Virus record (IMG/VR): IMGVR_UViG_2698536552_000012
Source: a virus
Taxonomy: Duplodnaviria; Heunggongvirae; Uroviricota; Caudoviricetes
DNA: 6,339 nt
Direction: 5' to 3' (one strand)
In this document: positions 5,716 to 6,229 of the stretch, one piece after another
How positions within the stretch are numbered: the first letter of the stretch is position 1
Layout of the letters: every line of letters begins with the position of its first letter
Position numbers and translations under genes: made by a program
The notes under the pieces: generated by a model
What the model saw: the letters and a program-made list of their open reading frames with translations, nothing else
Database searches by the model: none
Told to the model about the DNA's origin: nothing

Positions 5716-6110
5716 GACGTACAGGGTTGGCGTAACCGGTCATCACAAAACCCGGCGCGGATTTCTCCGCCCCTGCACGCCCCACCATAATGCGAATGTG
5801 GCAATGCTTAACGCAAAAAAAACCGCAAACGCGGCTATGCGTTGTGATGTTATCCGAGACGCCAATCCCGACAACCGATTTTGCGGTTGTGTGAGGAATA
5901 TAGCCCCGGAGAACAAAAACTGTCAACGGGCAAAAAAATTTCCGTTATCAGGAATGTATAAAATTAAAGCGATCGAGCAAAAAATCCTTTCTGCAAAACT
6001 AAAAAAGATTTCAATAAAATCAGGCAGTTAAAAACACGGAAAACGGTATAAAAAAGCGCCTCAAAATCCTGTTTTTTCTTTCAGATACAATGTCTTATTG
6101 CATTTTTTAA

Positions 6111-6229
6111 AACATGTCAGTGTGGTACATGGATATCGATACCATCGCCAATTATAAACTGGGCGGTGCACAGCAACATGATAGCGTACGCCTCGATCCG
6201 TGGGTGTTTATGTTCTCAGCAGGATATCG
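6111..6229 (+). pseudogene. ompW: 3-prime fragment of outer membrane protein W gene (last ~40 codons), cut off at both ends
   Basis: Translation NMSVWYMDIDTIANYKLGGAQQHDSVRLDPWVFMFSAGYR matches the C-terminus of E. coli OmpW (...VNMSVWYMDIDTTANYKLGGAQQHDSVRLDPWVFMFSAGYRF) as recalled from memory. An in-frame TAA (6108-6110) lies immediately upstream, so the rest of the gene is absent. The final Phe codon and stop are displaced by the IS1 end. Confidence 0.6.

Follow-up and report, generated by a model that had tools for sequence, protein, structure and literature searches.

The window examined here (the whole stretch of DNA analyzed, 6,339 nucleotides) belongs to a Caudoviricetes virus record, IMGVR_UViG_2698536552_000012, and its right-hand end raises the question of where phage DNA stops and bacterial DNA begins. 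The original prediction read 5716–6113 as a single A-tract-rich, non-coding segment of about 400 bp that ends at a 3′ fragment of ompW, and proposed that a prophage attachment junction lies there. Comparison with related genomes indicates, with a probability of about 90%, that the stretch is a composite of an attR in ompW, an IsrK–C4–Rha cassette and the end of an IS1 element. Within this composite, the sequence comparisons support position 6110/6111 as the right-hand boundary of a degraded lambda-like prophage integrated in the 3′ end of ompW.

None of the parts is new in kind: prophage integration into ompW has been published before, and so has the IsrK/C4 RNA switch that acts on an antirepressor. 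The value of the analysis is one of annotation: the prophage boundary is fixed at 6110/6111, an att arm of ~140 bp is told apart from the adjoining cassette, and each A-run and the inverted pair of the segment are accounted for.

The ompW fragment

The displaced chromosomal 3′ end of ompW occupies 6111–6229 on the plus strand and lacks the last 7 nt of the gene. Coding sequence for the C-terminus of OmpW had been placed near 6110, after an in-frame TAA, and this holds to the base, with the TAA at 6108–6110 and homology from 6111 onward. The predicted match to ompW is likewise present, at 97.5% identity to the gene of E. coli K-12. Against the chromosomal ompW genes of E. coli and Shigella, identity ranges from 97.5 to 99.2%, versus 80% against the phage-borne copy. 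Translation of the piece matches the Pfam OmpW profile at positions 155–193 of 195, and the equivalent piece in E. coli 14EC017 is annotated as a partial OmpW with a missing N-terminus.

Attachment sites in related genomes

The most informative relative is E. coli 14EC017, in which 5447–6229 is found at 99.6% identity at the right end of a lambdoid prophage. Gene order in this prophage (head, tail, J, lom, tail fibre, tfa, methyltransferase, Rha) is that of the lambda-like attR end which had been proposed for the window. Beyond it come the ompW fragment and then yciE-yciF-yciG-trpA, the usual neighbours of ompW in K-12. At the other end of the 54.7-kb prophage stands an intact ompW, encoding 217 amino acids, followed by convergent int and xis genes. 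The intact ompW with adjacent integrase that was predicted to exist elsewhere in the genome is therefore found, 54,686 bp away, in a relative rather than in the window's own genome. The core is repeated in direct orientation at this int-side end, and the same 54,686 bp separates the two cores.

The chimeric OmpW of 14EC017 spans the whole Pfam model (262.8 bits). The integrase of the prophage carries the lambda arm-binding domain PF09003 (77 bits) together with the catalytic domain PF00589, and the excisionase, which matches PF07825, is lambda-like as well. Three short repeats follow the rebuilt gene on the int side, and after these come a hairpin (ctggtcat-caa-atgaccag) and the run tttttt, which on sequence features are likely to form a terminator for the rebuilt ompW.

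The other forms of the site can be seen in further genomes. Phage 204576 (CP025907.1) has a contiguous attP that consists of the arm, the core, a phage-borne ompW end, three repeats and int. Comparison with phage-free ompW loci, as the original prediction had suggested, shows an empty attB in K-12, in three other E. coli genomes and in two Shigella flexneri genomes. A scan of species-representative genomes with a 30-nt core returned six loci; all are phage-free attB sites and none is an attL. Among complete E. coli genomes, 531 of 5426 contain at least 80% of 5927–6150, and 98 contain at least 80% of 5447–6339, the latter without IS1 at this place. Taken together, the 14EC017 prophage, the attP of phage 204576 and the empty attB sites support a prophage attachment junction in the 3′ end of ompW.

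Two other origins for the junction were weighed against this one. In one, unrelated phage DNA would have been fused to the ompW fragment by an IS-mediated rearrangement, the alternative named in the original prediction. Such an event gains some plausibility from the IS1 end that adjoins the fragment at 6230 and from a lineage rich in IS copies and in IS-linked deletions or inversions. It is nevertheless hardly credible for 6110/6111, since the 98 complete E. coli genomes mentioned above have the junction identical base for base, but not this IS1; in addition, the position agrees with the arm–core boundary of a contiguous attP, and no IS end is found at 6110. What IS1 does cut is the opposite end of the fragment, at 6229/6230. 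According to the other alternative, the ompW-like piece is a phage-borne copy of the “attB-in-PP_3” type (PMC8112680), and the window lies inside a cluster of prophages. It is true that phages of this group possess ompW-like 3′ ends (~80% identity), but the fragment shows that degree of identity to the phage-borne copy and a far higher one to chromosomal ompW. Its right-hand neighbours are also chromosomal, namely yciE-yciF-yciG-trpA in 14EC017 and, in genomes identical to the window, trpA past the IS1. A phage-borne origin is thus very improbable, and the fragment is treated below as the chromosomal end displaced at an attR.

Core and arm of attR

An att core could be defined by alignment, as had been anticipated, with the attR, attL, attB and contiguous attP of relatives. 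The set aligned comprised the window, attR and attL of 14EC017, attB of K-12, two other ompW prophages and phage 204576. The block common to attL and attR of the 14EC017-type phage is 6111–6148 (plus strand). Within it, 6118–6145, CAGTGTGGTACATGGATATCGATACCAC, is common to every attP, attL, attR and attB compared, with the window having a T at 6145 where the 14EC017-type core has a C. This position falls in the right-hand member of two inverted hexamers, GTGGTA at 6122–6127 and TACCAY at 6140–6145 (TACCAC in the relatives), which are twelve bases apart and may have a role at the core. The exact crossover point is not readable from the sequence, and the putative core is bracketed at 28–38 bp. 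A near-palindrome, CATTTTTTAAAACATG, is also present at 6101–6116 and straddles the boundary between phage arm and core.

The phage arm of attR, which corresponds to the P arm of attP, extends over 5972–6110 and is rich in A/T, with runs of both A and T. Its length is put at ~140 bp because homology to the attP of phage 204576 begins at 5972 (80% identity over 5972–6229) and homology to the PPompW prophages at 5991 (87.6%). Near its left end, at 5990–6000 on the plus strand, is a candidate arm-type integrase site, the 11-mer TCTGCAAAACT, which is a single copy in the window. As a 10/11-mer, TCTGCAAAACT recurs as three tandem copies between int and the stop codon of ompW, both in the attL of 14EC017 and in the attP of phage 204576; written as TCTGCAAAAC(T/C), the motif occurs once at 5990–6000 and three times beside int. 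All four phage arms retain CTGCAAAAC. Copies on both arms are the pattern expected of arm-type integrase sites. In the P arm, a second such site was not found at up to one mismatch (window) or at up to two mismatches.

A possible site for IHF, AATCAGGCAGTTA, lies at 6018–6030 (plus strand), preceded by an A-run and situated in a block kept in all phage arms. The consensus, WATCARNNNNTTR, is matched twice in the window, the other match being in the IS1 end, and 32 of 200 shuffled sequences give at least two matches, so the number of matches does not exceed chance.

By analogy with lambda, the phage would be excised when a lambda-type Int with an arm-binding domain, Xis and probably IHF gather on the arm and recombine the cores. 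The arm (~140 bp), the core of 28–38 bp and the host ompW 3′ end that integration displaced make up attR. In the intact relative, the ompW at the other prophage end is functional, its last 30-odd codons, its stop codon and a likely terminator coming from the phage. Since a replacement end is provided by the phage, ompW is not knocked out by integration.

The A-runs named in the original prediction (5815–5822, 5932–5938, 5979–5984, 6001–6006 and 6050–6055) are all present, and further runs occur at 5915–5919 and 6030–6034 (A) and at 6072–6077 and 6103–6108 (T). They do not mark a single segment, however. The A/T-rich part of it stands as the att arm at ~5972–6110, whereas the left part is a cassette of small RNAs on the minus strand. 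The run at 5815–5822 is the U-tail of the IsrK terminator, that at 5915–5919 lies in a promoter spacer, that at 5932–5938 is just upstream of the isrK -35 hexamer, and the remaining A-runs belong to the att arm. G+C content is 30% in 5927–6110 versus 43% in the whole window. The same 184 bp contain five runs of at least five A, compared with 1.2 ± 1.0 in mononucleotide shuffles, and 0.16% of 5000 such shuffles reach five.

A small-RNA cassette beside the arm

The left part of the segment is a separate cassette of the P1 immI, P4 immunity and Gifsy-1 isrK type that would control a Rha antirepressor-like gene. It covers 5651–5926 plus the Rha gene, all on the minus strand. The description of this DNA as non-coding and free of any credible ORF does not hold, as two Rfam families, a promoter that is conserved and an ORF of 45 codons are found in the left 220 bp. 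In phage 204576 the neighbours and the att arm are the same but 5049–5971 of the window is missing, so the cassette is a separable module.

The isrK promoter (5897–5926, minus strand) has a -35 hexamer TTGACA at 5926–5921 and a -10 hexamer TATATT at 5902–5897. It matches the consensus at 11 of 12 positions and is the sole promoter-like site in 5447–6339; both hexamers are kept in comparison with PisrK of Gifsy-1. Downstream, an IsrK-type sRNA is identified at 5816–5890 (minus strand; Rfam RF01394, 72.2 bits, gathering cut-off 50). A terminator scan places its intrinsic terminator at a stem of 5836–5821 with a U-run to 5815, and its first hairpin shows compensatory changes relative to Gifsy-1. 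A further family, RF03163 (c4-a1b1), scores 43.8 bits at 5903–5851 (minus strand), which is under its cut-off of 46.7.

Next comes an antisense RNA of the C4 type (P1 c4, P4 CI, Salmonella STnc1160) at 5705–5792 on the minus strand, which matches Rfam RF01695 over its full length with 75.9 bits against a cut-off of 45. Its minimum-energy fold is the Rfam consensus (-47.4 kcal/mol, z = -5.2), while the opposite strand gives z = -1.2. Matches to Rfam IS009 at 2658–2737 and 696–885 of the window were far below the gathering score and were discarded.

Overlapping C4 is a leader ORF of 45 codons (5651–5788, minus strand), the counterpart of orf45, whose stop codon overlaps the start of the Rha gene (ATGA). 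An ORF of 45 amino acids also occurs at the equivalent position in Gifsy-1, where orf45 undergoes translation, and the length and the ATGA overlap agree with the published description (PMC4825925). The Rha-family antirepressor-like gene itself, counterpart of Gifsy-1 anrP, extends over 5097–5654 (minus strand), with bases 5196–5446 masked in the window. The gene at the same place in 14EC017 is annotated “Rha family transcriptional regulator”. Against Pfam Phage_pRha, the N-terminal part scores 29.8 bits, just under the cut-off of 29.9; in genomes identical to the window, the full product of 185 amino acids is listed with PF09669.

Two boxes near the start of the Rha gene can be paired with C4. 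The first, GUCAUCACA, lies at 5656–5664 (minus strand), between the Rha Shine-Dalgarno sequence (GGAG, 5667–5664) and the AUG (5654–5652), and is perfectly complementary to the C4 loop UGUGAUGAC at 5747–5739. The second, GAUUGGCGUC, lies at 5693–5702 (minus strand), and its UUGGCGU (5700–5694) is complementary to ACGCCAA of C4 (5733–5727). The 10-mer GAUUGGCGUC is repeated in IsrK at 5867–5858. IsrK holds upstream box copies at 5867–5858 and 5849–5843, and the downstream boxes are at 5702–5693 and 5664–5656. This pairing logic is that of the P1 immI region.

A plausible working model is that one promoter makes IsrK, and that transcripts reading through the IsrK terminator provide C4, the orf45 leader and the mRNA for Rha. 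C4 could then pair with the two boxes at the translation start of Rha, and the IsrK copies of both boxes would act as decoys. With such decoys, the balance between IsrK and C4 would set antirepressor translation, as suggested by the complementarity and by work on Gifsy-1. The scheme fits the finding that IsrK supplied in trans turns on translation of the antirepressor in Gifsy-1 (PMC4825925).

A weaker idea concerns the circular phage, in which transcription of int across attP would run on into the cassette, and control of the antirepressor would then depend on the state of integration. The different location of the cassette in Gifsy-1 and other phages speaks against this as a general rule.

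The inverted pair noted earlier (aaccgcaaa at 5821–5829 and tttgcggtt at 5879–5887) does exist, and extends to 14 nt at 86% complementarity, but it is located inside IsrK. One of its arms is part of the 5′ stem-loop of IsrK and the other part of the terminator hairpin. Folded in isolation, the 75-nt IsrK reaches its energy minimum by pairing both 9-mers (z = -2.3). A single hairpin formed from the pair was nonetheless rejected, being not kept in the Gifsy-1 alignment as judged by eye, while a longer transcript folds into the Rfam hairpins. For these reasons the pair is regarded as a by-product of two similar hairpins.

The “ash family protein” ORF

RefSeq annotates a CDS of 91 amino acids, “ash family protein”, at 5651–5926 on the minus strand, which is the very region assigned above to the small RNAs. 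It could be argued that a real Ash protein is encoded here, or that a protein of 124 amino acids is encoded at 5657–6031 on the plus strand, and that the RNA matches are secondary. Besides the RefSeq entry, a match of the 91-aa ORF to Pfam PF10554 (Phage_ASH) at 53.8 bits, with a cut-off of 26, speaks for such a protein, and gene callers report a plus-strand ORF of 123 or 124 amino acids in some assemblies. Several features weigh against it. The start codon of the 91-aa ORF is a TTG within the isrK -35 hexamer, upstream of the first base of the RNA. In Gifsy-1, the two halves of the ORF are in different frames, and neither half matches Pfam. The PF10554 match in P4 is the old “cI” ORF, which holds the CI/C4 RNA. 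NCBIfam gives no match for either the 91-aa or the 45-aa ORF, and the plus-strand ORF matches no family. Moreover, orf45 is reported to be conserved in its nucleotides and not in its amino acids (PMC4825925). A protein-coding explanation is accordingly improbable, and the “ash family protein” call is most likely the translation of two small-RNA genes, with actual translation likely for the 45-codon part alone.

The P4 protein epsilon (“Ash”) was considered as a homologue of the 91-aa ORF and rejected, since there is no similarity and epsilon is a member of another Pfam family (PF25738). It may be added that PF10554 or “ash family” coincides with IsrK and C4/CI RNA genes both in the window (5651–5926, minus strand) and in P4 (8168–8584, minus strand). 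PF10554 has served as a marker for epsilon (PMC8628076).

IS1 and the state of the prophage

The last 110 positions of the window, 6230–6339 (minus strand), are the end of an IS1 element; they have thousands of matches, which carry the annotation IS1 family transposase. In contigs identical to the window, DDE_Tnp_IS1 genes abut the ompW fragment. Several NCBI assemblies contain an ORF across the ompW/IS1 joint and match the window, where it is unmasked, at 100% identity; the joint occurs in no complete E. coli genome. In the identical genomes, the IS1 is 768 bp long and is followed by DNA that lies 103 bp from the end of trpA. As DNA near trpA comes directly after the element, a deletion of ~1.66 kb is deduced, which took away the last 7 nt of ompW together with yciE, yciF and yciG. 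In this lineage, IS1 erased the final 7 nt of the ompW fragment as well as yciE-yciG. The IS load and the IpaH-like LRR gene described below suggest, as a guess, that the lineage is Shigella. The far side of the IS1 shows no target duplication matching the ompW-side joint.

Leftward in the identical genomes, where a further 10 kb was covered without arriving at attL, the Q-region and lysis genes are kept, the terminase-to-J region is missing, and IS3-family copies are present. The prophage is a defective remnant in this lineage, and the att site is therefore probably a fossil that is no longer used. Copies of positions 1–95 of the window are found at other places in related genomes, always next to a transposase gene of the IS3 family, so the window seems to be bounded by ISs at both ends.

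The altered OmpW of lysogens and the cargo region

OmpW is an eight-stranded barrel in which the stretch between the last two strands would be an external loop. For this connection K-12 has TANYKLGGAQQHDS, the 14EC017 lysogen TAKYKSDGRKLAKGSYSDN and phage 204576 TAKYKSGVTTVKDS; of the two versions in a lysogen, the window contains just the original one that was displaced. Because the int-side arm replaces this last surface-exposed stretch of OmpW, lysogeny by phages of the group may be other than neutral for the host, although this proposal is speculative and rather unlikely to hold. Colicin S4 and some phages use OmpW as a receptor (PMC10132071), and for this reason the att site could double as a device for lysogenic conversion or exclusion.

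With regard to sequence variation, the phage-borne 3′ end of ompW differs between phages, and it changes the residues between the last two OmpW strands. The ompW end of 14EC017 is 15 nt longer than that of E. coli ompW, which gives it the length of the ompW of Citrobacter amalonaticus.

Elsewhere in the window, two opposed tail-fibre-assembly genes lie at 350–913 (plus strand) and 942–1475 (minus strand), and a truncated invertase gene is found at 2430–2636 (plus strand), the counterpart of which in an identical genome carries Pfam Resolvase. Nearby, GTTCTCGTAAACCGAGGTTTTAGATA (2373–2398) resembles the gix/hix crossover sites. Together, the tail-fibre-assembly genes, the invertase gene and GTTCTCGTAAACCGAGGTTTTAGATA have the appearance of a decayed invertible tail-fibre segment. 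An IpaH-like LRR gene is located at 2693–3529 (minus strand), and its counterpart in two related contigs carries PF12468 (LRR_TTSS). This gene is present in the window and in three related contigs, and is absent from three others that are otherwise 100% identical. A repeat of ~60–96 bp at 2683–2742 and 4640–4735 flanks the methyltransferase/LRR cargo region, and shares 92–97% identity with the matching parts of related sequences.

Comparison with known systems

The closest published counterparts of the attachment site are the PPompW prophages of STEC O145:H28, which integrate in ompW with an att of 121 bp (Nakamura et al. 2021, PMC8112680). PPompW and P-EibA (ECOR-9) use the same site as the window's phage, and their phage arms share 87.6% and 85.5% identity, respectively, with it over 5991–6229. 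Likeness extends to the int-side arm and the integrase, which are homologous (93% identity), to the lambdoid layout, and to the presence of cargo genes beside attR. There are also clear differences. PPompW duplicates exactly 121 bp of ompW, whereas the 14EC017-type phage has 38 bp followed by an end that is ~80% identical and 15 nt longer. To the left of the core, PPompW has CTAC and the window CATGT, and the cargo consists of nleG-type effectors in PPompW in contrast to the IsrK–C4–Rha cassette in the window. Judged by these differences, and with the 121-bp att not being shared, the window's phage is best regarded as a related but distinct type.

More broadly, lambda offers the general plan of attP and attR, while e14 and phage 21, both in icd, integrate in the 3′ ends of genes and bring a replacement end. 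The likeness to lambda lies in the order int-xis...J-cargo-attR, in an A/T-rich arm of ~140 bp and in arm-type sites on both arms. Shared with lambda, e14 and phage 21 are an Int with an arm-binding domain, an Xis and a target gene that is kept intact. In contrast to lambda, the core and arm sequences are unrelated, and in the P arm of the window one copy of the putative arm-type site was found.

For the cassette, the nearest relative is isrK-orf45-anrP of Gifsy-1 (Hershko-Shalev et al. 2016, PMC4825925), which has the same order of promoter, IsrK with its terminator and C4/45-codon ORF. The ATGA overlap with the Rha/antirepressor gene is shared as well, and identity is 75% over 5681–5914. The P4 immunity region gives the same pair of Rfam matches, and the immI region of P1 (c4-icd-ant) has the same cassette order. 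In location, the cassette of the window's phage is at the far right prophage end beside attP, whereas that of Gifsy-1 comes after the Q antiterminator gene. Finally, the complement of the C4 loop in the window lies in the initiation region of Rha itself, while the model for Gifsy-1 invokes alternative mRNA structures around orf45.
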